In this document: piece by piece, positions 12,966-43,710 of the stretch
Position numbering within the stretch: the first letter of the stretch is position 1
Layout: every line of letters starts with the position of its first letter
NCBI GenBank assembly: GCA_043228905.1
Contig: JBHGNT010000014.1
Coordinates: forward strand, 15,934,001 to 15,998,000
Direction: 5' to 3'
DNA length: 64,000 bases
From: Azolla caroliniana
Lineage: Eukaryota > Plantae > Polypodiophyta
The notes under the pieces: model-generated
The model's database searches: none
What the model saw: the letters and a program-made list of their open reading frames with translations, nothing else
What the model was told of the DNA's origin: nothing
Made by a program: the position numbers and the translations under genes

Positions 12966-13780
12966 GTAAAATCACACAATTATATTAATTGCATGTAAAA
13001 AAATCCCCTATTACAATTTGTTAGTCATCTTTACATACATAGAGAGATACATATTCATAACATTACCATGAATATGGACCTCTCAACATCCCCTAATTGT
13101 TCTAATTAGTAAAAGCATATTCAATCATGAAGAGAAACAAGTATGTAAGTTAGTTGGACATCACATTCGTCATTTGGTCTCTCTCTACATCCTATCTTCA
13201 CCTCTTTCTATTTTCTCTTTCTCTCATGCTCACAAGTCACGATAGTTTGAACCGAATCCTTTCTTCTCTTCCTCTTCCAGGAACCCTAGCAAACTTTCTT
13301 CTTTTTTCTTCATTCTTTTCCCCGATCCACATAAGTTATGGAGTCCATAAGCAAGCAAGAATATACGTGTGTCCTTTCTGAGCTCGACATGCTCACAACT
13401 AAGTTTGTGGCATTAGAGCAAGAAAATGAAAGGCTACTCGGGGACCTACAACAATTGAGTACCGAGAAAGCTCACCAATATGAAGAGTTATCAAATGGGT
13501 TCACCAACTTGAGGCTACTATATTGACATTACGAGAACAAGCGGTGGGGGTTCAGAACCCCCCTAGAGAACCAAAGATTAACCTCCCTACCAAATTTGAT
13601 AGTACAAGATCTTTGTTTCAAGGCTTTTTGAATCAAGTATGCTTGGTGATTCAATTACATCCCAATCGGTACCCAACTGAAGTTGCTCGTGTAGGATTAG
13701 TCGGAACCTTGCTAAGTGGTACAACATTAGCATGGTTTGCACCACTTCTCGAGAAGAAATCACCGTTGTTGGAGGAATTT
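12691..13780 (+). mobile_element. Truncated Ty3/gypsy element with PEG10/sushi/Tcn1-like gag (putative LTR 12691-~13160)
   Basis: Interrupts the copia RT at a TG. ORF REPKINLPTKFDSTRSLFQGFLNQVCLVIQLHPNRYPTEVARVGLVGTLLSGTTLAWFAPL is preceded by a coiled-coil piece and cut at 13780 by another LTR. Confidence 0.75.
12771..12790. promoter_or_regulatory. Perfect four-unit heat-shock element
   Basis: aTTCtaGAAcaTTCtaGAAt, ~15 bp upstream of a TATA-like ctctaaata. Confidence 0.6.
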
Positions 13781-14353
13781 TGTTACTCCTCCTAGAGAAA
13801 ACACCTTCAGTTACCCCTCTCGAGTAATCAGATCAAGGTATTGTGGTGCGAAGGAGAGTTGAGGTCACGACACCCTACCGAGACCGTTAGCCGAGCCATT
13901 ATGGGGTATATGACTTCCTAGTGCTTGTGATTGTTATTCAGGTTGTCCCACTTGGATGGAATTATGACCGCCGAGATAAGAAGGATATGTTGCGGGATCG
14001 GCTACAATAAATCCTTAGATATGTATTTTACACAAATTGAACTTATATATACCTACATATATATATAAGAATAAAGAGACTGAACACTGAAGTTGCCCAC
14101 AAAATATATTCGCTTAAAGTGTACACACACAGATACAAGTACCGAATACTCTCGGTAGACCACCCATAGTCTATCCCTGTATTTCTGGCCTAGTTCTCCA
14201 TCTTCATGTTCTCTACTACTCGATATATATAATTCTTGTGCTCAGCGTTTTCCCATTGTTCTTCCTAAATGTTCGGCTCCCTTTGTTTGGTTGCTAGTGC
14301 TTGGACTTCCTTGATTCGTTTCACACATTGTCCCACTTGTCCCACCGATAACA
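13781..14353 (-). repeat. Gypsy LTR 'A' (573 bp)
   Basis: Terminal inverted repeats TGTTA...TAACA; starts exactly where the upstream gag is cut. Orientation inferred by analogy with LTR B. Confidence 0.7.
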
Positions 14354-14401
14354 CCTGGCACATCCGTGGGACAGTGCCTTGCACGTTGAACCCAAACTCG
14401 A

Positions 14402-14884
14402 TGTTAATCATGGGCTGGACTTAGCCACAAACACAGGGTGTCCGTACCGGAACACTTCTCCAAAGGGGTGGTTAGGATATGGATGTTAACCAGTGTTTAT
14501 CCGATTCCAATCCGACTATTCCCGGATACCTTCCGGATTACTTAATGCGCAACCGATTACTTCTACCATGCGTAAGATTAATAGTAAAGGGCAGAACGAC
14601 AAGTACACAGACACAATATAATTAAGAACAATCGCTAATCTTGTATTACTTCCGTTAATCATTTACATTGATTCCGGATCCTTTTATAGGCATCCGATAG
14701 GGATTACAAAACGGTGCTTACCGGTTATCAACTATCAATCGGTGCAGATCTGGATCGGTACAACTATCTGGATCCGTCTGTTCCTATAATATTACTTAAC
14801 TAATAATTATGCTACTACTTATATTATTATACTCCGACTCGTGCCCATCCACATTACTCGTCCGGAACATACTCTAGACCAACA
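14402..14884 (-). repeat. Gypsy LTR 'B' (483 bp), terminal LTR of the 14402-20130 element
   Basis: TGTT...AACA termini; minus-strand TATA cctataaaagg at 14680-14690 followed by an aatacaag polyA-like signal. Confidence 0.7.
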
Positions 14885-14938
14885 CATGGCACGCCCGTGG
14901 GACAATGCATTGCATGTCGAACCAACGGGTTAGCTCCT

Positions 14939-17647
14939 TTAGTCTTCATCGAGTATGTCCAGTATACTCTGATCCAAGGGCTCGAGCGGTTCTTCTTCCA
15001 TCATCTATTGTTGTTGCTCTGGTTGTTGCTGTTGAGACGGTTGTTGCTCCCGTTGTTGAGACAATTGTTGCTCTAGTCTGGCGCCCTCTGTCTTTTCTGT
15101 TCTAGCTCCTTCTGTCTGCTCCATCCCGGTGCTTTCCATCTACTGATCTGACTGCGACTCTGGCTGTTGGGGCCTTGCCTCCACCAGCTATTCCTCATCA
15201 CTAATGTTGATTTGCTCCGCCCGCCGTGCAAATTCTTTCCTCCGACGCTCCCGCTCATATCCTTCCAACTACATTTGCACATCGAGTTGGTCATTTTCAA
15301 GTCCATTGACGAGCTTCCGAACCTCCTCTATCTATGTGTCGACCAAGGCATAAAAATCCTCTGCCAATTCCTCTTGGATGGTGACTATGCTTCCCTCATC
15401 CATCTTATAGAATTTGTCCTCGTCCTTCTTCCGGTTTGTCGCATCCGCTCGGAGCAGTTGGAGTTCCGCCACTTGTTTTGACCATTGATGTCAAACTAGC
15501 ACTGAACTATGGACTATTCTTGTTTTAATCCGGTCTCTCCATGTTCCTACCAACATCCGGATTCTTCCAATGCCCATTTTGACTTTGTCTTCCATGGCCG
15601 CCTTTTCGTTCTTTAGCTGTTTGATGAGGTCTATCGGTGTTGTTGCTTGCACTTCTTACTCCATTATTTTGGTTTTGTAGGTTATCTGTACCCTGTCCAA
15701 AACCACCTTTGCTCATTCCACCTCCTCGTAGTGCTTTGACACAATCCCCGTGCATTCTTTCGCAGCTTCCTCAAGCACCCTTGTCATTGCCTCAGCCATC
15801 ATCCGTCCCTGGTCCGTCAGCGCCTCCGTTTTCTCTTTCAACTCTGTCCCGACTACCTTGAGCTTCTCTTGCTACCGGTCATAATCCGACCCCGGCTTCT
15901 TATGTTCTGCCTCGAGCTGCTTATGGTCCCGTTACAACTTCTCGAAGTCCTTTGTTCTCCACTTTAGACTTTATCCTTCTGTTGTCAGACCTCCTCCTTC
16001 AGCCTTTCGATCTCTGTTTCCGCCATTCCCTGCAACTTATCCTTCTCTTGCAGTAGGCTATGCTTCTCATCCTTTAGCCGATCATAACTCCCTTGAATCT
16101 TCCGGAGACTCTCTTCGGTTCTCCCCTTCTCCTCCTCGGTTGTCTTCCTTAGTTCTCTCTCTTAATGCCTCCTGAGCGGCCAATTTGTCTTTGCGTTTGC
16201 ATTTCTTTCTCCCACTCATGTTCTTTTACCGGGGTTGTGATCGCCTCTGACTCTGCTTCTTTTTCCGGAGCTTTCTTCTATATATTTTTCAGTTCTACTG
16301 GCTTTATTTATGTATTGGTGCCCTAGCCCATGTGTGCCATGATTTTAACCAATTCCTTGGTCCTAGCTAACTCCTCCTCTAAACTTCAGATTTGGTTCCA
16401 GGCCTTTTTTAATTCCTCGATTGCTGATAACAACCGTTCGGCCTGCTTTGGCTCCTGCCTTTGTTCTGCATCCATGCGGTCAGCCACACCGGAAACCTGC
16501 TTTTCGAGCCGCTCCAACCATTGCCCGCAGGTTTTGTGTTGTGTGAGTGTAGCGAATTGCTGCACTGGCTCCGACATCCATCCTTGCTCCTCTTCGAACC
16601 TCGGTGTAACCCATTCTTCTTGTTCTGGTGTTCGTTTTGGTCGGTGCTCTTCATTCTAGAGTTGCGTCTGAAGACCGGTGAAGTATGTCATTCCTTCTCC
16701 GGTTCATGTTGAACCGTGCTCACCACTTCTGGCCTTTCTGTTGTCTTTGCCTCTGGTCTTGGCTCCACTGTTGAGCGGGAAATCAGTGTACTTTCCTTTC
16801 ACGGACTCGATCCTTCCCCATGTTGCTCATGTTCGCGTTGTTGCCTCAACCGACGTTGAAGGGTTTCTTCTTCTTCCTCCTCTTCCACAGTTTCCTGGTG
16901 GGCCTTTGGCACCGGTTCTAGATGTTCCCTAACATGTCAGTGCAACTTTATCTTAATTGGTTTTGTTGTTTTCTCCATAACTTTCTCCACCGTTGCTTCT
17001 CTCTGGGGCTCCGGAACTGCTTCTATCCGTTGGGAATCGGGATGCTTCCCTGACTGTCCATCTGGGGTTTATGTTTGGCCAGGAGCTACTGTCGTTTGGA
17101 TGCTTGGTTTGGTGTTGTGACCTGCCGTGCCCGTTTCTTTGGTTTGATGGCACTTGTCGATGAAAATAGCATAGTAAGCCACTGTGCTAATCCGACCCTA
17201 GCTTTCTTGCCATCCATCACGGCCGCAATCGCCGTTCATAAGGAATCATCCACTATTACCGACCAATCCACTTTTAGGCCTTCAAATGTTGTGATAATGA
17301 ATCCAGCCCTATTCTTGGGCATGGCGAGTGGCCGGGGATGAACAAATCTGTACTCGAGCAGCACCCGAGCCACTTCTCGGAATAGGGGGGTTTCACCGCC
17401 ATGTGTCTGGTATGCCTTGCTTGCGATCAAGAACTCCCCAAAGTATTCTGTCAGTATTTGGGTGGAGGGGTTCTCGATGGAGTACAGGCCTCCAGAAGGT
17501 AGTTCTATGGCCGCCTGCATTGTGCCTTCGTAGAGTTCGTCCAATCTATTGTAGCTACGACCTTCTTCGGTTCTTCATGCCGTGGTGCTTCTGCTACTCG
17601 GAGAAGTCCTTGATGACCTAGTCCCTTGCTTCTTTTGAGAGCGCCAT
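14939..17647 (-). pseudogene. Degenerate extra ORF downstream of gypsy pol (globular N-terminus, low-complexity linker, long coiled coil, acidic C-terminus)
   Basis: ATG at 17647; pieces ILTEYFGEF...LKVDWSVIV, QWLERLEKQV, LLSAIEELKK; ends ...LDQSILDILDED* at 14939. Many stops. Confidence 0.6.
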
Positions 17648-17999
17648 GGGTTATGTGCTTTCTTCATCGAGATCATTCTGGTGGTTGAGTGCCTGTGTTT
17701 TTTCGGAAGTCAGTGCGTTATGTGCTCATAAGATCTTTCTTTCACGAAATGAGACTCCCTCGTGTGTACATCGTATACCACCTCTTCTTAATTATCGCAC
17801 ATGCACGTCGTATACCATAATAACATGATCATGCCATGTGGCGCACTTAAAATAGGATGACGTCACTCCCTTCCACTCGCCTTTTCATTATGACCATTCA
17901 ATATCTCGAATCTCTCTTCTTCTTCTTCTTTTTTCCCATTCCACTACAACTTAGATTCCTGTTGTTCCGAGTGTCATCCAACACTTTCCTATTTACCGG

Positions 18000-18758
18000 T
18001 GTCGTGGAGAAAACCGTCAATAGTGAGAAATCGGAGAATGTTGGAAGGATCGTCAAGGTGCACCGTGTGCACCCACCCTTGTACAGAATTAGCATAGGGG
18101 CTAGGGGTTACCTTTGTGGCGCCGAATAGGCAATAACGTTGGGACAGAGGATCCCTTGTAATATGGGATTTATCCCACATTGTAACGTCTCTCCCTCCTT
18201 GGGCTATAAAAGGAAGGGAGGGGTCTCTTATATGGGGTTGCCCATTTTGTGTTAGGGGGTATACCGTTAGATTAGGGTTAGGCGGTTTTAACTTGGAAGT
18301 TTCTTTTCTTCTCCTTCTTCCTCGTCGTGAGGGTTGAGAGTTCATTTTTGTTTAGGGTTTGCTTCTACTCGGTCTCCTGTGCAAGACCTTGCTCAGCGTG
18401 ATGAGCCCACGAGTTCCCCGATTAGCGGCGTGGCAGCAGACTGCGGCTGTAACCTACCTTGGTCCGGCTCAAAGCCGGGTTGTAGCACTTCACTTGTAAT
18501 ATACATACTCATATCTATTTGTACATGTTGGCGTATTTGGTGGTGTCAGGAGCACAACCCCTTGCTTCTTGTGCATAAGAGTCAGTGTCGCACGCATGCT
18601 CTCTCTCTTCTCTCTCTTCTCTCTCTCTCTCTCTCTCTCTTGTGTTTAGTTGCATCCGGGTCATGCCCGGTGTCAGTTTTCTTGGCATCCCTTTTCTCCC
18701 TCATCCGAGACCCCCGTGGTCCCGCCCCTTCCACACGCACGCGCATAATAACGCGACA
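18000..18758 (+). mobile_element. Solo LTR (759 bp) with 4-bp TSD CCGG inserted in the pol C-terminus
   Basis: TGTCG...CGACA termini; ccgg at 17996-17999 and 18759-18762; TATA ctataaaagg at ~18204. Removing it rejoins the host frame ...PTTLEP|VNRKVLDD. Confidence 0.9.
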
Positions 18759-20899
18759 CCGGCTCTAGTGTTGTCGGGGTTGCGCCGATAATTTCTTCTT
18801 CGGCTACCACTTCTCCGATTGCCTGGTCCTTGCGCTCCTCCGATTCCTTGAATGGTTGCCGGAATCTATTTACCCATTTCTCGAGGAGCTCCCTTGCCAA
18901 CGTACCAAGCTGATAGGACCCTTTAAACTCCCGTGTGATCCAGAATGGTCCAGTCAATCGGAACCTCAGCTTCCTCGGCATGTTTCCCATCCGGGTCTGG
19001 AATACCAATACCGGTTTCCCGATTCAGAAGTCCTTCTCGTTGCCCTTCCGGTGTCGTGTCAACGAATGCCTTTTGTTGTTCCAGCTCTAGCTACATCAAG
19101 CCCAGTATCCGGTGTTCTTCCAATTCACATAATGTTTCTAACTGTATTTGTTCCGACTCTTTCTCACTCAACCGTTCCCGTACTTGTATCCATAGACTGG
19201 GAATCTGGAATTCCATCGGCATGACCGCTTCCAATCCGAAAGCCAGTTGGAACGGTGTCGACCTGATACTCATTTTGTATGTTGTCTGGTATGCCCACGA
19301 TGCACTGTGCAATTTCGTATCCCAATCCGTCCGGTTTTTGTTTACAATCTTCCAAAGGATATTTTGAAGTGTTTTATTCATTCATTTGGCTAGTTCATTC
19401 GCTTGTGGGTAGTATGGTGTGCTTCTTTTTTGGACCACTACATAGAATGTCATCAAGATTTCCACCACTTGTGTTATGAAGTGCCCACCTTGGTCGCTGA
19501 TAAGCTCAATCGGGCAACCATACTGGCACTAGATGTACTCATACAAGAACTTCGCCGTGGATGCCACGGTGTTATCCCGAAGTGCCTTTGTTTCGACCCA
19601 CTTGGTACAATAATCCGTGGCTACGATAATGTTCCGGTTTCCGGTACGCATTGTCGGTGTCTTGAATGGTCCGACAAAATCCAGGCCCCACTTTTGGAAT
19701 GGTTCCAACGGCATCACCGATTGATGTGGCATTCACGCCCGTTGTGTTGGTTGCCCCATCCTTTGGCATAGATCACATTCCTTGCATTACTTTATTGCAT
19801 CTTTGAGGGTGATTGGCCACTATAATCCGCTCCCAATCCGCTACGTTATATCTTTCAGGTTGTTGCGTCTCCGACATAGTGTCCTCTGGAAATCTCGTAG
19901 TGTGCCTCACATAATACCGCGCCCTTATCGTCACTCCGGACCGCTTGTCGCCAAATCCCATCGGCTCCCTTGTGGTACAGGCTGTCCTACAACAAACAAA
20001 AATGTCAGCTCTACACTGCCAACCGTTTCCGCTCATCCCGATTCAACTCTTCCGATGGTAAGCCGATACTCAGAAATTGATGCATATTGGTCATCCACTT
20101 ATCTTCGTCGGTCTTCGTTTGGGTTTACGTTGTCGTGATGTTTCTAACACATAGTATGAAACCACCCACGAAAAGAAGTAAAATAGTAGTTCAAATAAAC
20201 TAGTATTGTGAAGTCAACTTTATTGGTAGAAAAAATACTTTTTCATTTTCCAAAGATAATTCCTTATAAATAAATGGTCAAAGGATTGAACCTTACAATA
20301 AATAATGATGAATATTAAGTTAGAGGCGGTTTTCAAAAGTAGACAAGAGTAGGGAAAAAGATGGAGAGAAAAAAAACACACGTGGATATGAGCACAGTAG
20401 AGACAAAAGCTCATAATTTCCTCATCAAATGTCCAAATTAGAAAAGAAAAGATGCATAAGAAAGCTAACCCAAAGAGCTCTCCAAGAATATCTTGCATGT
20501 GAAATTTGGGGCTAGAAAACAAAAATAGTGAGGAAAAGAAAAGTCGACTCATATAGACAAGCTGTTTTTTAGGGGAAAATGGCAAGCAATCCTAAACCTA
20601 TAAATAAGAGCCTATTCTAGTGAAGAAGGGGAGGAGGGAGAAGGAACGTGGAAGCTCTACTCAATTGGAAAGTGGAAGAAGAAGGATCAACAACATCGAG
20701 AGGCATCATCAACAAAGAAACTCCTTCTATACGCCACTCTCTTCTTTCCTCTACCTCTCTTCCCCCATTAATTTATAAACAATCCTTCATATTCGCATCC
20801 AACCCATTGTAACATGATTCTTATATTATAAAAGAATCTATTATATTGATATAAACTAATGTTTTCTTTCATCTACTTGTCTTATGTGTAAATCTTGAA

Positions 20900-22000
20900 T
20901 GTGCTTATTTGTTATCGTCATTTGTGCTTATTTGTTTGTGTGTCTTGTGACAAGGGAGCGTTTCGGGCTTGCCCATGCACATCTCCTTTCACAAAGGCAT
21001 TCAAACGTAAATGTCTTATATGTTATCATTGTTTGTGCTTATTTGCTTGTGTGTCTTGTGACAAGGGAGTGTTTCGGGCTTGCCCATGCACCTCTCCTTT
21101 CACAAAGGCATTCAAACATACGTGCCTTGCGTGTTAGTGTAAATCTTGCTTGTGTGTTCGTGCGACTTGTGGCAAGGGAGCATTTGGGCTTGCCCATGCA
21201 CCTCTCCTTTCACAAAGGCGTTCGAAATCGTGTCTCCCGTGTGTAAACCTTTCTTGTGTGTTCGTGCGACTTGTGGCAAGGGAGCGTTTGAGCTTGCCCA
21301 TGCACCTCTCCTTTCACAAAGGCGTTCGAAATCGTGTCTCCCGTGTGTAAACCTTTCTTGTGTGTTCGTGCGACTTGTGGCAAAGGAGCGTTTGAGCTTG
21401 CCCATGCACCTCTCCTTTCACAAAGGCGTTCGAAATTGTGCCTCCCGTATGTAAACCTTTCTTGTGTGTTCGTGCGACTTGTGGCAAAGGAGCGTCCGGA
21501 CTTGCCCATGCACCTCTCCTTTCACAAAGGCGTTCAAAATTGTTTCTCCCGTGTGTGAACCTTGCTTGTGTGTTCTTGCGACTTGTGGCAAGGGAGCGTT
21601 CGGGCTTGCCCATGCACCTCTCCTTTCACAAAGGCATTCGAAATTGTTTCTCCCGTGTGTAAACCTTGCTTGTGTGTTCATGCGACTTGTGGAAAGGGAG
21701 CGTTCGGGCTTGCCCATGCACCTCTCCTTTCACAAAGGCATTCGAAATTGTCTCTCGTGTATAAACCTTGCTTGTGTGTTCGCATGTTTTGTAACAAGGG
21801 AGCGTTCGGGCTTGCCCATGCACCTCTCTTTTCACAAAGGCATTCGAAACTCTGTCTCTCATGTGTGTAAGTAAGCCTTTTCCTTGCGTGTCCATGTGTA
21901 AGCCTTCCTCACGTGCCTTCGTTCGCCTTGTGACTAGGGGTTGATTCGGGCTTGCCCATGCACCTCTCCTTTTCACAAACACGTTTGAATACTCGTGCCT
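20900..22000 (+). repeat. 104-bp tandem array (~10 copies) inside the LTR
   Basis: Core cttgcccatgcacctctcctttcacaaagg recurs at 104-bp spacing in the central copies; edge copies are more diverged. Confidence 0.95.
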
Positions 22001-22118
22001 TGTTTGTGTAAGTCTTCCTTGTGTTGTGTGTGTAAGCCCTATTTCCTTCCCGTCCATAACCCTGGCAGTTCCGCCTCACGATCCACACATAGTGACGGAT
22101 TTTCACAACATAATAAAG

Positions 22119-22135
22119 TGGTGAACCCGACGTGA
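22119..22135 (+). promoter_or_regulatory. Primer-binding site complementary to tRNA-Trp
   Basis: TGGTGAACCCGACGTGA, 8 nt after the LTR end; matches the recalled plant tRNA-Trp 3' end. Confidence 0.8.
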
Positions 22136-22454
22136 AGAGGTGGTAGGAAGGATCAAGTGCTTGCAATAAAGATTAGAAGATGGCTTCTTCGTCAAACACC
22201 CAAGCTGATTAAGTGACAAAGTTGGTGGCTATTGTCGAGCATATGATGAGAGCTCAAGATAATGATGCAAGCTTAGACAAGGCTATCGACTGAACCGTTG
22301 AGATAGCGGGCCAATTTGGTGGAAGAAACATTACGGATTTTCTCGCTACATACAAGATGGAGATGCAACAATGTGATGTCATTGAAGAGACACAAATATC
22401 AAGCTTCAAGCGTGTCGTAGCTATTGGGTTACAAGGTCGTATAAGGAAGATTCA

Positions 22455-22831
22455 TGTTAGGAAACAGGTCCCTTCGGATGGGAAGTGAGAAGAACAATGT
22501 TGATGAGCAACTCGGCCGAGGCCGAATCCGGATGTGGAGTACCCGACAACGGAAGACCCGGTGAGAACCGGATGTGGAGTACCCGGCAACAGAAGACCCG
22601 GTGAGAACCGGATGACGAGTACCCAGCAAGGAAGACCCGGTGAGAACCGGATGTTGCAAGCCCGGTGAGAACCTCTCATCGGATGGAAGGGACATATATG
22701 TAAATATGTTCCAGAGAGCCCATTGGGGCTATATTTGTAAATAGCCCGAAAGTCATATTAGTATAAATATGACCTAGGGCAAACTTAATAGTGAGGATGA
22801 TAGAGTTATTGGTGTAACCTTTGTATAGTGC

Positions 22832-22884
<53 letters not shown>

Positions 22885-23182
22885 AGAGAGAGAGAGAGCG
22901 ATATACAGAGATTGTGTCTCTGTTGTAACCGCCGCTAGGCGAAGATTGTGAGCAAGAGGTCGTTGCCTCTGTGCTCTCTGTTGTATTACTTTACAGAGTG
23001 ATAGTTTGGAGTCTGTGGACTCCCGTGGTTTTTCCCTCTCAGGGTTTTCCACATTAATATCCTGTGTATTCTCTTTCTGTTTTGTGTACTTACCTCCATT
23101 CCCATTTCGTCTGTGTTTTGATTGTCATCAAGTGATCTACGCTTCGGTTGTGGTCGGAGATTAATCCACGTATTTCACGTCA
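22455..23182 (+). mobile_element. Copia solo LTR (728 bp) with 5-bp TSD ATTCA, related to the intact copia LTR
   Basis: TG...CA; attca at 22450-22454 and 23183-23187; shares ggtcccttcggatggg and gtaaatagccc..aaagtcatat...tataaatatgac.tagggcaaac with the LTR at 27057; contains ~40-bp tandem repeats at 22528-22670. Confidence 0.92.
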
Positions 23183-24439
23183 ATTCAAGCCGCCCAAACA
23201 ACATGGGTGGGATTTGAAAGGGTGCTTTTGGCTGAATATATGCTTGAAGACGCGTCGAGGATGACTCGTCATACGTTGATGAAGTGGATCAAGAAGAAGG
23301 GGAAGAACATGAACACATCGGGAGTGTACACCGAATTTGACCAAATGTACAACCGTCTCACGAGAACCGACCAAACACTTCTCGAAGGAGATAAAGTTTT
23401 GTACTTCTTAAGGGCGGTGGATGCAAAAGATAGACAAGAACTAGGTAGTCTATTAGAGGATGAAGCACAACCCAATGGTCTCATAACGGATTGGGTTGCG
23501 GTAAGAAGAGCATGTGATCGATTTGACAAACGTCGTCGATGGCTAGATGATTCTGACATGGCGGGCCTGGTAGTCCAAAGAAGGAAGGCTCCAATAGCAA
23601 CTAAGATGACAAAGCAAAGCGAGCCAACCGAAAGAGCGATGGAGAACTCTGTCATTGAAGAGTTGGCACGAAAATTCGAAGCGGTTTTGTTAGCTAATAT
23701 GAGTCGTATAGGGCCGAAGGGGAAAGACCCATATAGATGTCTATGGTGTGATAGTGTTGATCATGCAAGGAAAGATTGTGCTAGCCTTCAAGAGGCAATT
23801 CGACAAAACCTTGTCTACATGGAAGGCAACATTATACACTCAAGTGAGACTCAAAAGCCCTTGCAAGTGAATTTCGGTAGGGGGGTCTAAAGAAAATCAT
23901 GGATGAGGCTGATGCGAGCCATGTTGAAGCATTCTCCTGGTGGGCTTCTCTTTCCGGTTGTGTTGGCACTAGTTCCCTCTGTGTTACTTGTATTTGGAGT
24001 TTCTTTGTCAGTTCCTTCTCTATCATTGTTCGTCTGGTCGTGTTTATGTTGCATCTTGCACCACACTTTTGGAAACGCGCACATTGTCGCTAACCGCACC
24101 CTCGCACAAACGTCGTTGCCATTCTTGTTCGCTCGCACATACTTTTGCCATTTCTCTTTCGCTCACACATACTATCGCCGCATATCATTCCGTCATTAGT
24201 CGCTCACCGTTGATTAGATTTTTTGCTCTCTGTATAATTTCATCGCATCTATCCATCGACTACTTCCAAACATCGTCACTGTCATTTGTACATTTCCGCC
24301 ATTTCTTGCACATCGTGCTACCACGTATTCTTCTTGGACTTTTTCTTCAAAGAGGGTTCACCGTTGTGGTCGCCAAAATAGTTTAGGGTTAGGGATAACG
24401 TTTATGATAATGATGATTGGTGATGGTGTTGACAATCAT

Positions 24440-26700: not shown

Positions 26701-27056
26701 TTCCACCACTCTCAATATTGGGAGTCGGGGACATTATAGACATTCATGCATACTACATATCCCAATCATTTCTTAGTTTCTCATGTTGGCGTTGCACGTG
26801 GGGATGCAAGAATAAGCCATCCTCCTAGATCAATGGTGGGGTTGGGAATTTGGAGGCTTGATGCTCGTAGCCTTGTCACAAGCTTAGATGACATATTTAC
26901 ACTTTCTTATTATAAGGAAGTTGCATAAATTTTGGTCATCAATTTTAAATTTGGTATTCAATCTTCAAGTTCACACTAATGGTACAAGGTGTTAATTTGA
27001 AGGATGTAATCCCGTATAACTTATGTTTATTCTTTCCTAAAAGAGAAGAGTTGTTT

Positions 27057-27658
27057 TGTTGGGATTACGGTCCCTTCGGATGGGATGGTCGGATATCGGA
27101 GATGAATGCCGACAAGCCCGGTTTCGGTTTCGGAACCGGATGATGAAGACCCCGGCTTCGGAGCCGGATGACGAATGTACCCGGAGCGAGATCCGGATGC
27201 AGGGACATATCTGTGAATATGTTTGCCAAGGGCCCTTGAGGCTATAGTTGTAAATAGCCCCAAAGTCATATGTGTATAAATATGACTTAGGGCAAACAGT
27301 TTTGTTGTTGCTACTCATTTTTCTGTTTTTCCACTCAAGAGGAGTGAAGAGAGAGCAGCCGTGAGAGAGATAGAGCGTGAGAGAGGAGGAGGTCGACGCC
27401 TCTGTGTATTTCCGCCGCCTGTGGCGAGGACAACGAGCTCAAGGTCGTCGCCTTGCAGCTCGCCATTGTATATTTCTCTATGCATAGTTTTGGTTTGGAG
27501 TCTTGTACTCCCGTGGTTTTTCCCGTCTAGGGTTTTCCACGTTAATCCCTGTGTATTCGTGTTCTTTCTCTGTGGTTCCTATTTTCTGCTGCATTGATTC
27601 GTGCTTACTCGGTTGTGGCCGAGTGGTGAAGGTTAATCGGAGCGTCGATTTCTCTACA
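27057..27658 (+). repeat. 5' LTR (602 bp)
   Basis: TGTTGGGAT...CTCTACA; direct repeat of 31772-32373. Confidence 0.97.
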
Positions 27659-27661
27659 AAC

Positions 27662-27673
27662 TGGTATCAGAGC
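27662..27673 (+). promoter_or_regulatory. Primer-binding site (tRNA-iMet)
   Basis: TGGTATCAGAGC 3 nt after the LTR. Confidence 0.95.
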
Positions 27674-27687
27674 GACTGCTGCAGAAA

Positions 27688-30600
27688 ATGGAAGGCGGCG
27701 GCAGCGGGCAGCCGGGGATGATGGTGCTGAATGCGCAGAATTACGCCGACTGGAAGATCAAGATGGAGGATCTTCTGATTGTTCGGGACCTGTACGAACC
27801 GATCGACAGGTCGGAAATACCGAAGGGGGTACTTGAGTCGGAATGGAGGCTTCTGAACCGGAAAGTCGTAGCAACCATTCGGCAATACGTAGACGTGAGC
27901 GTTCTACAACATGTGGCGAACGACACCAACGCATATGAGATGTGGCGGAAGCTGTCGGGCCTCTACGAGAGGAAGAATGCGTTGAAGCGGACCTCCCTGA
28001 TGAGGAAGATAGTGAACCTCAAGTACCGGGACGGCGAGAGTATGGTGGAACACGTAAGCACGTTCATGGGATTCGTGAACCAGCTTGCGGCGATCAAGTT
28101 CCCGCTGGAGGATGCAATGCAAGCCATCATTCTGATGTGTACATTGCCGGAAAGCTGGGAGAACTTGGTGGTGACTCTCAGCACCTCCTGCACCGAAGAT
28201 AACTTGTCCCTACAAACGGTAAAGACAAGTATTTTGAACGAAGAAGCGCGTCGGAGAGATAAAGAACCGGCCTCCGATCCGAAGATGTTGTTTACCGAAT
28301 CGGATCGGGGAAGACAACGGAACCGGAGTCCGCAAAGACGGGAGAAGTCGGGGACCCGGTCGCAGTCAAGAGGAAGACCCACATGCTTCCACTGTGGGAA
28401 GCCGGGGCACTTCCGAAAGAATTGTCAGCATTACCGAAAAGACAACGGAGCCGACGACACCGATTCGAAGAAGTCTTCGGAACGGAACGGTGCTTACCGG
28501 GGAGCCACGGACCGGAATGGTTCGGATCGGCGAGGGCAGGACAGGAAAGGAACGACGGCACTCGCGGCAAGTGAGGAAGAAATCATGCTCATCACCGAAG
28601 AAGGTGAGCTAAACATTGCCGGCGATGAGACGACCTGGGTGGTCGATTCCGGAGCGTCGTTCCACCTGACCCCGAAAAGAAGATACTTCTCATCCTACAC
28701 AGCCGGTGAGCATGGCTGTGTTCGGATGGGAAATGAAGGTACGTGCCGGATCGCCGGCATAGGAGACGTGTGGTTGACAACCTCGACCGGATGTAAAATG
28801 CTGCTGAAGGATGTCCGACACGTTCCGGAGGTTCGATTGAACCTGATTTCGGCCGGGAGGCTAGACGATGAAGGCTACACAGGTAGCATCCGGAACGGCG
28901 TAATGAAGTTCAGCAAAGGGAGCCTGATAGTGGCTCGGGCCCGGAAGATCAACACACTGTACCTGATGAATGCCCGGTTATGTCCGGAAGAGCTGAATGT
29001 GGCAGTCGACACTGCCGGTGAGCTGTGGCACAAAAGACTGTGCCACATGAGTGAGAAGGGGATGAAGAGGCTTGCAGAAAACAACCTTATTCCAGTGAAG
29101 CATGTGCACCTGGAGAAGTGCACCGATTGCCTGGCCGGTAAACAGAACCGAACCTCCTTCCACTCAAGGCCACCGACGAGACGTAGCGCACCATTGGAGT
29201 TGGTGCACACCGATGTGTGTCAGGTAGAAACGAAGTCACATGGCGGAGCCCAGTACTTCGTAACATTCATAGATGATCATAGCCGAAGACTGTGGACGGC
29301 ACCGATGAAGACAAAGGACCAAGTGTTGTCCGTCTTCAAAGAACTCCACGCGAGAGTGGAAAGAGAATCCGGCAAGAAGCTGAAAGCGATACGAGCGGAT
29401 AACGGAGGGGAATACCGGGGACAGTTCCAGGAGTACTGTCGCTCGAAGGGAATCCGGCTCGAGTTTACTGTGCCGAAGACGCCGGAACTGAACGGGCTGG
29501 CCGAGAGGATGAATCGGACCATAATGGAGAGGGTCCGGAGTATGCTGGCGCATGCGGAATTACCCAAGGGGTTTTGGGCTGAGGCGATGTCGACGGCGAC
29601 ATACGTGATAAACAGATCACCCTCAGTACCTTTGGACGGAGACACGCCGCAGAGAGTGTGGACCGGTAGGGAAGTATCCTACCGGCATCTGAAGGTGTTC
29701 GGGTGTCTCGCATACGTGCATGTGGCAAAGGACCGGAGAGGAAAGCTAGATCCAAAGACCCGGCCATGCATATTCCTCGGTTACGGCGATGACGAGTTCG
29801 GCTACCGAGTATGGGACCCGGTCGACAAGAAGATATTCCGGAGTCGTGATATCATCTTCATGGAGAACAAGACACTCGCCGACTGGGAGTCGGAGAAGAA
29901 GATGAAGAGCTCCAAGTCGACCGGTGAGGATCAACTCTACGAGGAGCAGTCCCGACCGGCAAGGGACCGGTTAGCACTCGAGGATCCGGCCGAAGACGGT
30001 GAAGAAACAGAACCGGCCGAAGAAGATGAAAATGATACCGGAACCGGCCCCGATCCCGAAATAGATTCGGATGAAGAAGAATCGGAAGAACCGGTTACCG
30101 AAGCTCCGGAACGGAGATATCCTCTAAGAGAGAGAAGGGCCCCCCGGAGATTTCCGGAACCAGAGCACCTGTTGCTAACCGACGAGGGGGAGCCGGAGAG
30201 CTTTGAAGAAGCAAAGCATGACACCCAGAGCCGCAGGTGGTTGAGTGCCATGCAGGACGAGATGGATTCCCTGCATGAGAACCACACATATGAACTTGTG
30301 GAGTTGCCGAAAGGAAAGCGGGCACTTCGAAACAAGTGGGTGTTCAAGCTGAAACCGGGAGATGCCGGAAACCCCCCGAGATACAAAGCCAGGATCGTGG
30401 TGAAGGGGTTTCAGCAAAAGAAGGGCGTCGACTTCGACGAGATATTTACCCCGGTAGTGAAGATGACCTCCATCCGGACGGTGCTGAGCATAGCGGCAAG
30501 CATGGACCTCGAGGTAGAACAGATGGACGTGAAGACGGCATTCCTTTACGGTGACCTCGAAGAAGAAATCTACATGCAGCAACCGGAAGGATTCGAGAAG

Positions 30601-31761
30601 AAAGGGAAGGAGCACCTGGTATGCCGGTTGAAGAAGAGCCTTTACGGACTGAAGCAGGCTCCCCGGCAATGGTACCGGAAGTTCGACTCCTTCATGACCG
30701 ACGAAGGGTACCTCAAAACGCAGTTCGACCACTGCGTGTTTGTGAAGAAGTTCGAAGGAGGAGACTTTCTAGTACTCCTCCTGTACGTGGACGACATGTT
30801 GATCGTCGGACGAGACCAGGTCAAGATACGGATGCTGAAGAAGGCTCTCCACCGAACCTTCTCAATGAAGGACCAGGGTCCGGCGAGACAAATACTAGGG
30901 ATGCACATCATCCAGGACCGGAGCAAGAAGCAGTTGTGGCTGTCACAGGAAAAGTACGTGACAAAGGTGCTTAAACGGTTCAACATGTCGGAAGCAAGAC
31001 CGGTCGGATCGACCCTCCCGGCAAACTGCAAGCTGTCCAGCAAGCAAAGTCCCAAGACAAAGGCTGAGAAGGAGGACATGATGAAAGTGCCATATGCCTC
31101 TGCCGTCGGAAGCTTGATGTACGCAATGGTGTGTACCCGACCGGACATAGGATATGTAGTCGGAGTGGTGAGCCGGTACATGAGCAATCCCGGCAAAGAG
31201 CATTGGAACGCGGCCAAGTGGATACTCCGATACCTGAAGGGCACGGCAAACGTGTGCCTCCGATTCGGCTCCGGTAAGCCCGAACTCGACGGCTTTACCG
31301 ATTCGGATATGTCGGCTGATGCAGATACCAGCCGGTCCACATCAGGGTATGTGATGACGTATGCAGGGGGAGCTGTTTCATGGCAGTCGAGGCTGCAGAA
31401 GACGGTTGCGTTGTCAACCACGGAGGCGGAGTACATGGCAGCTGTTGAAGCCGGCAAGGAAATAATATGGATGAAGGACTTCATTAGAGAGCTCGGTATC
31501 CGGCAGGAGGAGTACCGACTCTACTACGACAGTCAGAGTGCAATCCACCTTGCAAAGAACGCGGCCTATCACTCCCGGACGAAGCACATCCAGCGAAGAT
31601 ATCACTGGATCCGGGAAAGGATAGAAGACAAGGAGTTCGTGCTGACGAAGGTCCACACGGACGAGAACGGATCGGATATGCTGACCAAGGTGCTCACGCC
31701 CGACAAGCTGGAAGCATGCCGGAAGAGGATCGGATTGGAGAGACATCCCATGCCGAAGTGA
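27688..31761 (+). CDS. Copia Gag-Pol polyprotein (1357 aa)
   Basis: Zinc knuckle CFHCGKPGHFRKNC, protease WVVDSGAS, HHCC/DDE integrase, RT YVDD, RNase H TTEAEY/SDMLTK. Confidence 0.97.
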   Translation: MEGGGSGQPGMMVLNAQNYADWKIKMEDLLIVRDLYEPIDRSEIPKGVLESEWRLLNRKVVATIRQYVDVSVLQHVANDTNAYEMWRKLSGLYERKNALKRTSLMRKIVNLKYRDGESMVEHVSTFMGFVNQLAAIKFPLEDAMQAIILMCTLPESWENLVVTLSTSCTEDNLSLQTVKTSILNEEARRRDKEPASDPKMLFTESDRGRQRNRSPQRREKSGTRSQSRGRPTCFHCGKPGHFRKNCQHYRKDNGADDTDSKKSSERNGAYRGATDRNGSDRRGQDRKGTTALAASEEEIMLITEEGELNIAGDETTWVVDSGASFHLTPKRRYFSSYTAGEHGCVRMGNEGTCRIAGIGDVWLTTSTGCKMLLKDVRHVPEVRLNLISAGRLDDEGYTGSIRNGVMKFSKGSLIVARARKINTLYLMNARLCPEELNVAVDTAGELWHKRLCHMSEKGMKRLAENNLIPVKHVHLEKCTDCLAGKQNRTSFHSRPPTRRSAPLELVHTDVCQVETKSHGGAQYFVTFIDDHSRRLWTAPMKTKDQVLSVFKELHARVERESGKKLKAIRADNGGEYRGQFQEYCRSKGIRLEFTVPKTPELNGLAERMNRTIMERVRSMLAHAELPKGFWAEAMSTATYVINRSPSVPLDGDTPQRVWTGREVSYRHLKVFGCLAYVHVAKDRRGKLDPKTRPCIFLGYGDDEFGYRVWDPVDKKIFRSRDIIFMENKTLADWESEKKMKSSKSTGEDQLYEEQSRPARDRLALEDPAEDGEETEPAEEDENDTGTGPDPEIDSDEEESEEPVTEAPERRYPLRERRAPRRFPEPEHLLLTDEGEPESFEEAKHDTQSRRWLSAMQDEMDSLHENHTYELVELPKGKRALRNKWVFKLKPGDAGNPPRYKARIVVKGFQQKKGVDFDEIFTPVVKMTSIRTVLSIAASMDLEVEQMDVKTAFLYGDLEEEIYMQQPEGFEKKGKEHLVCRLKKSLYGLKQAPRQWYRKFDSFMTDEGYLKTQFDHCVFVKKFEGGDFLVLLLYVDDMLIVGRDQVKIRMLKKALHRTFSMKDQGPARQILGMHIIQDRSKKQLWLSQEKYVTKVLKRFNMSEARPVGSTLPANCKLSSKQSPKTKAEKEDMMKVPYASAVGSLMYAMVCTRPDIGYVVGVVSRYMSNPGKEHWNAAKWILRYLKGTANVCLRFGSGKPELDGFTDSDMSADADTSRSTSGYVMTYAGGAVSWQSRLQKTVALSTTEAEYMAAVEAGKEIIWMKDFIRELGIRQEEYRLYYDSQSAIHLAKNAAYHSRTKHIQRRYHWIRERIEDKEFVLTKVHTDENGSDMLTKVLTPDKLEACRKRIGLERHPMPK

Positions 31762-31769
31762 AGGGGGAG
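31760..31769 (+). promoter_or_regulatory. Polypurine tract
   Basis: gaagggggag immediately before the 3' LTR. Confidence 0.9.
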
Positions 31770-31771
31770 TT

Positions 31772-32373
31772 TGTTGGGATTACGGTCCCTTCGGATGGGA
31801 TGGTTGGATATCGGAGATGAATGCCGACAAGCCCGGTTTCGGTTTCGGAACCGGATGATGAAGACCCCGGCTTCGGAGCCGGATGATGAATGTACCCGGA
31901 GCGAGATCCGGATGCAGGGACATATCTGTGAATATGTTTGCCAAGGGCCCTTGAGGCTATAGTTGTAAATAGCCCCAAAGTCATATGTGTATAAATATGA
32001 CTTAGGGCAAACAGTTTTGTTGTTGCTACTCATTTTTCTGTTTTTCCACTCAAGAGGAGTGAAGAGAGAGCAGCCGTGAGAGAGATAGAGCGTGAGAGAG
32101 GAGGAGGTCGACGCCTCTGTGTATTTCCGCCGCCTGTGGCGAGGACAACGAGCTCAAGGTCGTCGCCTTGCAGCTCGCCATTGTATATTTCTCTATGCAT
32201 AGTTTTGGTTTGGAGTCTTGTACTCCCGTGGTTTTTCCCGTCTAGGGTTTTCCACGTTAATCCCTGTGTATTCGTGTTCTTTCTCTGTGGTTCCTATTTT
32301 CTGCTGCATTGATTCGTGCTTACTCGGTTGTGGCCGAGTGGTGAAGGTTAATCGGAGCGTCGATTTCTCTACA
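31772..32373 (+). repeat. 3' LTR (602 bp)
   Basis: Identical to the 5' LTR except C>T at 31805 and 31887 (comparison by eye). Confidence 0.97.
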
Positions 32374-39929: not shown

Positions 39930-42131
39930 TCATCTCAAAGGTATCCAGCTCTTCATGCACGACCACGCAAGCCTGCGTTTCTTGACATCATCTCCTGAGC
40001 TGCTGCATGATCTCAATGCCTCCAGCTCCCTTAAGCTCTTATGAAGCTTGCTCTGTGCACTCGAGCACGCAGCTCTAGCGTCTTTTGCTTCCGCCCGAGC
40101 CTCGAAAAGCTCTCTTCTCAGTTTCTCCAGTTCCTCCACCACAGCTTTGCCTACCTTCAATGACGATGATGATGATAGCGTTGTCGTGCAAAACATTCTA
40201 GTCTCTTTTTGCACTTCTAAATGGCCTTCCTCATCTCCATCTCCCTTCACTTCAATCTGAGCATCTTCCAGCTTGCCGTTAGTAGCTGCCATTGCAGCAC
40301 TATAATGTCCAACTTTAGTTACATCAAGAGTCTTATTGGCATTGTGTCCTTGCCGATTATAAGTGGCCAGAGCTTTTAAAGCCTCACCGAGGACCTGCAA
40401 TAGTTCAGAAACATCGGCAGCAAAACCTGTGAAATTAGCACATGAACCGTATACTTCCCTCGTCCTAAGCTCGATCAGATATCTTTCTTTCTTCGCAGAG
40501 AGCCCCAAAGTTAAGGCTCTAGCTTTCACCTCCATTTCTAACAATCTGCCATGGAGATCCACCAATTCAGCTTCCTTCTTTTCGAGTTCGCACATGAGAG
40601 TTGTTGTCGTCCTATTATTTCTACATACTTGGTCCTTGAGAGCTTGCAATTCCACTTGGTTTTCTTCGAGCTCCATAACCAGTGCAGCAAGCTTATGATC
40701 TGTACTTGATTGCTCTAGATTAAGCATACACCTACCACACTCTGTATCCCAATTAGCAGCCAATTTGCACTCAAGCGATGAAGAAGAAGAGCATTTGCTC
40801 GCTTGATCTTGCAACTCCCATCTGCTTTCTGTAACTTCAGCTTGTAGCAAATAAAGCTTCGCAACTGCAGAGGTTTCCCTTTCTTTGAGAGCCATTATTT
40901 CTGCTTGATTTCTCTCTGCCATTTCTACCAGGCTGGCAGTTAGCTCTGCTATTTTAGCCTTCGCATTCCATTCCCTGCGTTGTGATTCAAGGGCATCCAC
41001 TAGGTTTTGCTCAAGCTGAACTTTGAGAAACTCGAGGGAGGAAGATAAAACACTCCCTTGTAAAGCCATGGCCAATGCGATTTCGTGTGCACCCTCAAGG
41101 TCTTTGGAGGCCTTGTCAAGCAAACCAAGGGCTACAATTTCGGCATTTCTCGCCTCTTCTCTTTCAAAGAGTGCTGCTTCCAGCTTGGCTTGAGTATCTA
41201 CTACCACCACATCTAGAGCCTTCTTCCATTCGGCCTCAGCTTTCGCAGCTGCACTGAGTGAAGCTTCCAAAGAAGCTGTTCGATCTCTAAGAATATGTGC
41301 CTCTGAGGAGGCTTTCACCTCAGCAAGCTCCCTTGTGAGGATCTCAACTTCGGCCATTGCCCGAGCAGCTGACTCGGTTGCGTCTTTCAAACTGGCCTCT
41401 CGGTTAGCCAACTCGATTGCCGATTCCCGTGAAATCCTTTCGCAGGCCATGTTCGCCTCCATGAGGTTCTGCTTCGTAACCGCAAGTTCTTCCAGCAGCA
41501 GCTCTTCCATTGCTCCTGATCTACCAGAAGCATCACCAGCAGTAGTCCTAACCAGTTCCTTATCCATCTCAGTGGCAGCACTGGCAGTAGCAGATTCAAT
41601 CTTGGTTCGGAAGAGCTCAATCGAGAGCTCCTCGACGCGTTTGGCTGTAGACTCGGCTGCATTCATCGCCTCTCCAGCAAGCCTCACCGCTTCATCTTTG
41701 GCTTCCACACAAACTAGAAGCTCATACTTCAAACTTCCTAAGGCTTGCTTGTTAAGCTGCAGCTCAAAAAGTGCAACATCATACTGCTCCTTCATGCTAT
41801 CTAGCTTTGCCTTCCATTCCTCTGCGGCTGTGATCATCGTGCTAGTATAGCTTATAACATGGTCATGATTCACATCTAGCATCATCTCTCCATGTGCACA
41901 AGGAGATCGAAGGGCCTTATCTCGTAATTTGGAAGCTTCGTTCACCTCATTGTTAACTTTGATAGTGAGGTGATCCACATTCTTCTTTGCACGTGCGAGG
42001 TCGTGTGCCAAGCTTGACTTCGATTTCTCGAGTAATCCGAGTTGTTCCTTCGCTTTAGCGAGATCTTCCTGCACCTGCTGCAAGTCGAAATCCGAGACCT
42101 TCGCAGCTACTGTTGTTCTTTTCAGCAGCTG
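39930..42131 (-). CDS. WEB-family (DUF827-like) long coiled-coil protein, coding exon 2
   Basis: 2202-bp open exon after a pyrimidine tract and TAG acceptor; LQQVQEDLAKAKEQL, EEWKAKLDSMKEQY and AESTAKRVEELSIEL resemble the WEB1/PMI2-related family. Confidence 0.8.
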   Translation of the reverse strand, partial: QLLKRTTVAAKVSDFDLQQVQEDLAKAKEQLGLLEKSKSSLAHDLARAKKNVDHLTIKVNNEVNEASKLRDKALRSPCAHGEMMLDVNHDHVISYTSTMITAAEEWKAKLDSMKEQYDVALFELQLNKQALGSLKYELLVCVEAKDEAVRLAGEAMNAAESTAKRVEELSIELFRTKIESATASAATEMDKELVRTTAGDASGRSGAMEELLLEELAVTKQNLMEANMACERISRESAIELANREASLKDATESAARAMAEVEILTRELAEVKASSEAHILRDRTASLEASLSAAAKAEAEWKKALDVVVVDTQAKLEAALFEREEARNAEIVALGLLDKASKDLEGAHEIALAMALQGSVLSSSLEFLKVQLEQNLVDALESQRREWNAKAKIAELTASLVEMAERNQAEIMALKERETSAVAKLYLLQAEVTESRWELQDQASKCSSSSSLECKLAANWDTECGRCMLNLEQSSTDHKLAALVMELEENQVELQALKDQVCRNNRTTTTLMCELEKKEAELVDLHGRLLEMEVKARALTLGLSAKKERYLIELRTREVYGSCANFTGFAADVSELLQVLGEALKALATYNRQGHNANKTLDVTKVGHYSAAMAATNGKLEDAQIEVKGDGDEEGHLEVQKETRMFCTTTLSSSSSLKVGKAVVEELEKLRRELFEARAEAKDARAACSSAQSKLHKSLRELEALRSCSSSGDDVKKRRLAWSCMKSWIPLR

Positions 42132-42619: not shown

Positions 42620-43710
42620 CTGTGATATAACCCCAAAACCTAGACCTGAATTGGGCCCAAATCTATGTTATAGCCCTAAACCTAAACCTGAATTCGGTAC
42701 GCAGGTGTGACATAACCCTAAACCTGAATTGGGCCCCGAGTTATATTGTAACCCTAACCATGTGTTGGGCCCAAAGAATCTTCCAACCTTAAACCTGGAT
42801 TGAGCCCAGAGCTATGTTATAACCCTTAACCTGGATTCAAGGATTGAACCCAGAACTATGTTAGAACCCTAAACCTTGATTGGGAGGTATGTTAATAACC
42901 TAAAGCTGAATTAGGGCCAGAGCTATGTTATAACCCTAAACCTGGATTGGGCACCGAGTTATGTTATAACCTTCAAGCTCAGTTGGAGCAAGACCAATGG
43001 TACAATCCTAAACCCCAGTTATCTTAAACCCTTAAACCTTAAGCCTGGATTGGATTCAGCGCTATGTTGCAAACCCTAAAACCTTCAAGCTCAGTTGGAG
43101 CAAGACCAATGGTACAACCCTAAACCCCAGTTATCTTAAACCCTTAAACCTTAAGCCTGGATTGGATTCAGCGCTATGTTGCAAACCCTAAAACCTTCAA
43201 GCTCAGTTGGAGCAAGACCAATGGTACAACCCTAAACCCCAGTTATCTTAAACCCTTAAACCTTAAGCCTGGATTGGATGCAGCGCTATGTTGCAAACCC
43301 TAAAACCCGGGTTGGGGTGAGAGCCCTAAAACCCCTGAAATCCTATAAGACCCTAAAACTCTTGAAATCCTATAAGACCCTAAAGCCCCTGAATTCCTAT
43401 AAGACCCTAAAACCCCTGAAATCCTATAGGACCCTAAAACCCCTGAAATCCTATAAAACCCTAAAATCCCTGAAATCCTATAAAACCTTAAAACCCCTGA
43501 AATCCTATTAAACCGTAAACCCCTGTAAAACATTAAAACCCCCTAAAATCCTGTAAAACCTTAAAACCCCCTGAAATCCTGTGAAACCCTAAAACCTCCT
43601 GAACTCCTGTGAAACCCTAAAACCCCCGAACTCCTGTGAAACCCTAAAACCCCCCTGAACTCCTGTAAAACCCTAAAACCCCCTGAACTCCTGCAAAACC
43701 CTAAAACCCA
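42620..43710 (+). repeat. Telomere-like (CCCTAAA-derived) compound satellite: ~40-bp units, 3x112-bp units, then ~14x27-bp units
   Basis: 112-bp copies start at 42969, 43081 and 43193; 27-bp unit ccctaaaacccctgaaatcctataaga from ~43324. Confidence 0.88.

Follow-up and report, generated by a model that had tools for sequence, protein, structure and literature searches.

A tRNA-Arg-complementary site in place of the polypurine tract of Gypsy elements in Azolla caroliniana and its candidate role in plus-strand priming

Introduction

How is the second DNA strand started in a retrotransposon that lacks the usual primer for it? Priming from a polypurine tract (PPT) is regarded as common to long terminal repeat (LTR) retrotransposons and retroviruses (PMC5371799, PMC6317226). 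The question is raised by a stretch of 64,000 nucleotides of Azolla caroliniana (contig JBHGNT010000014.1, positions 15,934,001 to 15,998,000), hereafter called the window. Gypsy elements in the window exhibit a sequence complementary to the 3' end of tRNA-Arg, and no purine tract, next to their 3' LTRs. This sequence is hereafter called the site. The original prediction for this stretch offered three options: (i) a tRNA pairs with the first-strand cDNA and serves as primer for the second strand in place of a PPT, (ii) the RNA that is packaged runs antisense to gag-pol, or (iii) the RNA of the element contains, just before U3, a mimic of a tRNA 3' half that ends in CCA.

The findings in this work represent a real, conserved, and lineage-wide departure from PPT priming. 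Second-strand synthesis is probably primed by tRNA-Arg annealed to the first-strand cDNA, in which case host tRNAs would prime both strands.

Two sites in two nested elements

Both sites lie on the plus strand of the window. Site B (14887-14926) consists of TGGCACGCCCGTGGGAC (14887-14903), a 13-nt insert (14904-14916), and TCGAACCA (14917-14924). Site A (14356-14394) consists of TGGCACATCCGTGGGAC (14356-14372), an insert (14373-14385), and TTGAACCCA (14386-14394). Both exhibit the same three-part complement of the tRNA-Arg 3' end, where the complements of nucleotides 76-67 and 65-59 are followed by the hairpin insert and the complement of nucleotides 57-50 (standard tRNA numbering). Both also begin 2 nt from the terminal CA at the U3 end of an LTR (14353 for A and 14884 for B). 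The positions, the 13-nt inserts, and the 2-nt spacers that had been claimed were confirmed from the sequence. The hairpin of site B is formed by ATGC/GCAT (14905-14915), and site B alone has A at 14924, where the other copies have C. The 17-mer occurs twice within the window, both times as an exact match, where 0.20 occurrences are expected even when three mismatches are allowed. ARAGORN identified no tRNA gene within the window, and an Rfam scan of 13000-16000 gave no family above the gathering score.

LTR A (13781-14353, minus strand, 573 bp, TG...CA) matches the metagenomic locus L024 over its whole length at 70% in blastn. LTR B (14402-14884, minus strand, 483 bp) matches the relatives at L025 and L043. 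The ends of both LTRs were fixed by alignment with relatives, which places the start of LTR B at 14402. LTR B had been taken as a 3' LTR, which stands, and LTR A as its diverged partner, which does not: the two LTRs do not match each other in self-blastn, and their relatives differ. Each is the 3' LTR of its own Gypsy family; the two families (elements A and B) are nested, and both have the site. Only one end of each element is present in the window. Element A was inserted into an unrelated plus-strand gag (DUF4939, 13484-13795), and element B was inserted inside element A, 7 nt past site A.

Element B is ordered as integrase (20109-18835), foreign solo LTR (18000-18758), extra open reading frame (ORF), site B, and LTR B. 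As originally reported, the integrase and the extra ORF are on the minus strand, and so is the LTR B TATA box (CCTATAAAAGG, 14690-14680). The integrase remnant contains stops and two frameshifts, is 65-73% identical to P0013 (an intact Gag-Pol), and is cut on its right side by another LTR element; the 5' half of element B was removed by another element at ~20140. The extra ORF is decayed (14939-17700, start approximate) and was delimited in tblastn with the intact relatives P0001 and P0002. Its stop (14941-14939) lies 52 nt before the CCA of site B. The solo LTR (plus strand, TGTCG...CGACA, high read depth) is unrelated to element B and interrupts it. The integrase and the extra ORF were once contiguous since a CCGG target duplication flanks this solo LTR on both sides.

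TCGA at 14398-14401 precedes element B. Both this TCGA and the CCGG of the solo LTR are compatible with the preference for NCGN targets described in Phygy (PMC6317226).

Conservation of the site in related loci

A motif scan of metagenomes gave 69 rows in 66 loci, plant-like after filtering. Six loci (L022, L035, L044, L048, L054, and L062) were dropped before all counts as bacterial chance matches. They have no LTR edge or hairpin; L022 and L048 have bacterial Pfam matches, and three have the flanks of L048. The 60 retained loci hold 63 sites, which together with the two window sites makes 65.

The site occurs under many unrelated LTR starts among these loci and the window. The distance from CA to TGG is exactly 2 nt in 52 of the 65 sites and 4 nt in seven; the remaining cases have TA at 2 nt (four sites) or are different or too short (two sites). 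The missing purine tract before LTR B is borne out, and it is missing across the family as well: the 30 nt ahead of U3 hold no purine run longer than 3-7 nt in any of the 61 sites with enough sequence. The 3' LTR of a Copia element in the same window, used as the PPT control, has a 10-nt purine run before it.

A relative of the extra ORF is present on the internal side in 25 of the 60 loci and is directed towards the site in 24 of them. Where its end motif could be located (14 sites), this ORF stops 52-143 nt short of the CCA. The antisense position of the site relative to the coding strand is therefore a property of the family, and no relatives with a coding-strand site and a canonical PPT appeared. 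As a separate observation, L016:1008-1608 consists of two U3 halves that are fused head to head and bounded on either side by a tRNA site, forming a palindromic unit.

Pairing of the site with the tRNA

The site is complementary to tRNA nucleotides 76-67, 65-59, and 57-49, with nucleotide 66 unpaired. A hairpin of 4-5 bp is looped out exactly at tRNA position 58/59, and the pairing resumes at position 57. We take the partner to be the tRNA-Arg(UCU) of plants, which is our assumption for this host. A motif without the hairpin matched 26 prokaryotic or phage loci, 17 of which are tRNA genes according to ARAGORN (16 tRNA-Arg and one tRNA-Glu). The positions outside the search pattern still pair, namely position 51 in 63, position 50 in 58, and position 49 in 51 of the 65 sites. 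The base opposite position 58 is free (T in 43, A in nine, C in eight, and G in five sites). It has been reported that the copying of a primer tRNA halts before m1A58, and parts one and two of the site cover the 18 nt of a retroviral primer binding site (PBS), ending before that residue (PMC8599865).

Across 40 distinct sites, 88.5% of the hairpin cells are paired, and 14 compensatory cells are found in three pairs. None of 500 shuffles is as high on cells and score. The compensatory change originally noticed between the two window hairpins thus extends to covariation across copies for these two measures, though not for the pair count or the pair-type count. The hairpin points to a single-stranded target, as a full RNA:DNA hybrid cannot hold a hairpin. 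A T faces position 51 in ten of the 65 sites; it keeps a G.T pair with the tRNA and breaks the T-stem of the sense RNA. Cofolding with the 3' 30-mer of tRNA-Arg(UCU) predicted a three-way junction in nine of nine sites, and the sense RNA of the site has no common fold among the nine sites tested. The site has no match in the viral collection.

Primer binding site at the other LTR end

The content of the other LTR end bears on the three options, and a normal sense PBS was found there. In a non-autonomous family, AACA-C(A/T)-TGGCACRCCC lies behind the LTR and the site lies before it at 13 sites in 11 loci, seen at tandem junctions. L053 exhibits, on the coding strand, the site, the LTR, a decayed PBS of the TGGCACRCCC type, and then directly gag; L059 has the same PBS as L053. 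L021 has another PBS type, TGGCGACCAC, which we presume to be that of tRNA-Arg(UCG). The same type is present in the window on the minus strand at 24366-24375, where it follows the LTR of a third, related element; the 3' junction of that element has no tRNA-end site. The complement of the TGGCGACC-type PBS (TGGCGACCAC) was found at the U5 end of LTR B in six of the 24 loose-end rows listed (24 of 171), from four DNA runs. The viral collection gave no match to a motif designed for the tRNA that would bind the second PBS type.

Minus-strand priming is ordinary in these elements because the 10-nt sense PBS follows the LTR. This result supports option (i), dual tRNA priming. It removes option (ii), since the sense PBS stands behind the LTR and before gag. 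Option (iii), a tRNA-end primer derived from the genome of the element, is weakened and retained as the main rival. The 3' site is an exact 10-nt complement of the 5' PBS in the families of L004 and L053, and the 5' PBS TGGCGACCAC of L021 and family B pairs with the 3' site over only 4 nt. End-to-end pairing is not general because the 5' and 3' sites differ in some families.

The non-autonomous family consists of L002, L004, L009, L020, L023, L036, L045, L047, L058, L060, and L066. Its LTRs are 330-490 bp, both tRNA sites are kept, and its copies are often in tandem. A conserved stretch of (T/A)ACGG and CTTGA(A/G)-purine follows the 10-nt PBS in this family, in L021, and in the window at 24365. 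Plus-strand purine runs with AGGATA directly before TG were considered as PPTs of an antisense genome and were rejected, as the true LTR ends place them inside U5.

Priming of the second strand

The pairing and the spacing are most readily accounted for by the following steps, which are proposed from the sequence comparison. Minus-strand synthesis would pass the site, and RNase H would clear the RNA. A mature tRNA-Arg, with anticodon UCU judging by similarity and recall, would then anneal through its acceptor and T arms to form a three-way junction. Its 3' CCA would face U3 two bases from the TG, and reverse transcriptase (RT) would extend the tRNA as the plus-strand primer. Later removal of the tRNA by RNase H, as for the first primer, would leave a 2-nt overhang that is alike at both ends. 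A longer and split match would be needed as the target is DNA. The breaks would hold each hybrid stretch to 7-10 bp and, more speculatively, may shield the primer from RNase H. It is also probable that the elements constitute a whole plant Gypsy lineage without PPT priming, where both strands start from host tRNA-Arg; this reading includes different isoacceptors in some families and a DNA docking site shaped around m1A58.

Several observations weigh against tRNA priming of the second strand. A tRNA:DNA hybrid is a substrate of RNase H, and the survival of the primer is not accounted for. No full-length single element was seen, and the evidence for both ends comes from tandem junctions and loose ends (agreement 0.48-0.71). 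The loci were chosen by the motif, so the share of relatives without the site cannot be inferred, and nearly all of them come from one series of assemblies. At its LTR start, the related window element (25164-24366) lacks both the site and a PPT, which also counts against a primer from the element's own RNA; a single copy cannot show whether it transposed in the site-less state. A 14-nt purine run lies at most 100 nt upstream in 11 of the 61 sites, not abutting U3. The hairpin rows are related, and their pair count and pair-type count are matched by 182 and 211 of the 500 shuffles, respectively. The T at position 51 represents only one or two lineage events. An A stands opposite C70 in 19 and opposite C65 in ten of the 65 sites, for which CpG decay or an isodecoder could be the cause. 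The cofolded tRNA is a stand-in from a prokaryotic assembly, was folded with RNA parameters, and may not equal the host tRNA.

The strongest competitor of tRNA priming is the element's own RNA, where RNase H would spare a tRNA-like fragment and cut after its CCA, and the site would be a non-purine PPT. The site does end in CCA at PPT distance from U3, which fits this explanation as well as it fits an annealed tRNA, and no new annealing step is required. Ty3 RT has been reported to cleave both tRNA-DNA and PPT-DNA junctions, and each RT suits its own PPT (PMC5371799). However, the match to nucleotides 57-49, the free position 58, the absent nucleotide 66, and the covarying hairpin are left unexplained. 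The sense RNA without a common fold and the T at position 51, which breaks the T-stem mimic, also speak against it. We consider a primer of this kind rather unlikely, though far from negligible. It is quite improbable that the site works in the RNA before reverse transcription, by end pairing with the 5' PBS, in packaging, or as a cleavage signal, while another, unnoticed primer starts the plus strand. The exact complementarity in the L004 and L053 families, the CYC5/CYC3 end pairing in Ty1 (PMC7969010), and the window relative without the site are consistent with such a role, but the 4-nt pairing in L021 and family B is not, and the exact 2-nt spacing and the missing PPT are left unexplained.

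The two remaining explanations concern the orientation of the site. A packaged RNA antisense to gag-pol with the site as its only PBS is very improbable: the site resembles an extended PBS on the plus strand, but the sense PBS precedes gag, the TATA box has the coding orientation, and the plus-strand purine runs do not sit at an LTR edge. We give even less credence to a local inversion, a misassembly, or separate elements that came to lie side by side by chance. Insertions are nested within one another in this region, and the 5' half of element B is absent here, which would suit such an origin. However, the LTR B-site-ORF junction aligns unbroken with L025 (14402-15017, 73%), and inversion or misassembly is removed because relatives repeat the orientation of site and ORF, in 24 loci. 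The sole insert between the integrase and the ORF has a clean target duplication, and a contig of another run, presumably of RNA (X13 record 1), keeps the order of ORF and then site.

No description of plus-strand tRNA priming, or of a second, inverted PBS replacing the PPT, was found in the literature searched, where subscription journals are thinly covered. Either main mechanism, with a tRNA or the element's own RNA as primer, is new as far as that literature extends. Priming by tRNA-Arg, if true, would be a second, undescribed way for LTR retroelements to initiate the plus strand. As a naturally occurring lineage of high copy number that does without PPT priming, these elements show that RT and RNase H can adapt to a different primer. 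The site provides a short, defined substrate for studying how primers are spared or removed by RNase H. Annotation is also affected, as software that infers orientation from the PBS and PPT would put such elements on the wrong strand or miss them.

Relationship to known lineages

The domain order of P0013 is gag, RT, RH, and INT. The window integrase falls in a starred clade of four rows with P0013, in a quick integrase tree that kept 78 of 120 matches for length together with two window pieces and included no lineage-labelled references. Named relatives of the integrase come from a fern (reaching about 55% across the whole query), from pine, and from a liverwort. P0013 and P0007 gave no Chromo (chromodomain) match, whereas the window's own chromovirus does give one, and both exhibit a single RNase H region with no aRH detected. 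No relative of P0013 was found in the viral collection.

The elements function like the Athila type, with no chromodomain, no aRH, and a sense extra ORF at the 3' side. They are not filed as Athila because their PBS is of another type and the integrase tree had no labelled references. Athila (OTA) has been described as a non-chromovirus without aRH and with a large extra ORF 3' of pol, which these elements share (PMC6317226). However, the PBS of Athila is mostly of tRNA-Asp, Asn, or Ala, where these elements have an Arg type, and the available portion of that paper mentions no second tRNA site in Athila, where these elements have one together with short LTRs of 330-570 bp (PMC6317226). Tat/Ogre/Retand elements commonly have a tRNA-Arg PBS and, like the present elements, contain extra ORFs downstream of pol and before the 3' LTR, but they carry aRH, and antisense ORFs in Retand, whereas no aRH was detected here and the ORF is sense to pol (PMC6317226; PMC11963269). 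Phygy elements are short, with no extra ORF and a tRNA-Trp PBS (PMC6317226), in contrast to the large extra ORF and Arg-type PBS here.

The canonical replication of Ty3 and retroviruses is shared in the tRNA-primed minus strand from a short PBS, the primer site before U3, and the TG...CA LTRs. Their plus strand starts from RNase H-resistant purine RNA, whereas the minus DNA strand here carries the tRNA complement and no purine tract (PMC5371799; PMC8599865). The bipartite PBS of Ty1 and Ty3 resembles the site in its split pairing with the acceptor stem and T arm around a looped-out spacer, and one part of the Ty3 PBS is at the RNA 3' end. That PBS is complementary to the tRNA in genomic RNA and serves minus-strand priming, whereas the present site is identical to the tRNA in RNA, includes the CCA, and replaces the PPT (PMC5371799, PMC7969010). 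A further comparison is provided by retroplasmids. The Mauriceville and Varkud retroplasmids have a CCA-ending, tRNA-like RNA 3' end tied to reverse transcription, where the CCA is the template start of a non-LTR plasmid RNA; unlike that end, the site is internal and has no full tRNA fold.

The extra ORF consists of an N-terminal globular domain, a low-complexity middle, a coiled coil, and a conserved C-terminal SILxILED. The N-terminal domain has 144 relatives and is located at L003:171-704 and at about 17170-17540 of the window. The domain and 77 relatives gave no Pfam match, and an atlas score of 0.86 for the PF03078 (Athila ORF-1) cluster indicates a weak likeness. The fold predicted for the domain of a relative (pLDDT 94.7) has VANC21 as its sole clear match, which is middling (Z 6.0, root-mean-square deviation 3.8, 160 aligned; next Z 2.7), and Foldseek gave no match at E 0.001 among PDB or viral models. 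The extra ORF may encode an anti-silencing factor, given the modelled likeness to VANC21, a transposon anti-silencing DNA-binding protein.

Other elements in the window

The third related element (26640-23930, minus strand) consists of an integrase tail, a shortened extra ORF ending at 25164, an LTR start, a 218-bp partial duplication, the LTR, and the PBS at 24375. Its LTR start, compared with L024, looks like a clean loss of the site. A plus-strand Gypsy element (20140-23920) has a 2-kb LTR with tandem repeats of 104-111 bp, a PBS at 22119 that is presumably of tRNA-Trp, and a gag split by a solo LTR. The Copia element used as the PPT control (27055-32373) is young, with LTRs that are 99.7% identical, a single ORF of 1374 aa, and a normal PPT. 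Arrays of 27-, 36-, and 112-bp units on CCCTAAA-like motifs lie at 42636-43709, upstream of a WEMBL-family gene (39930-42131).
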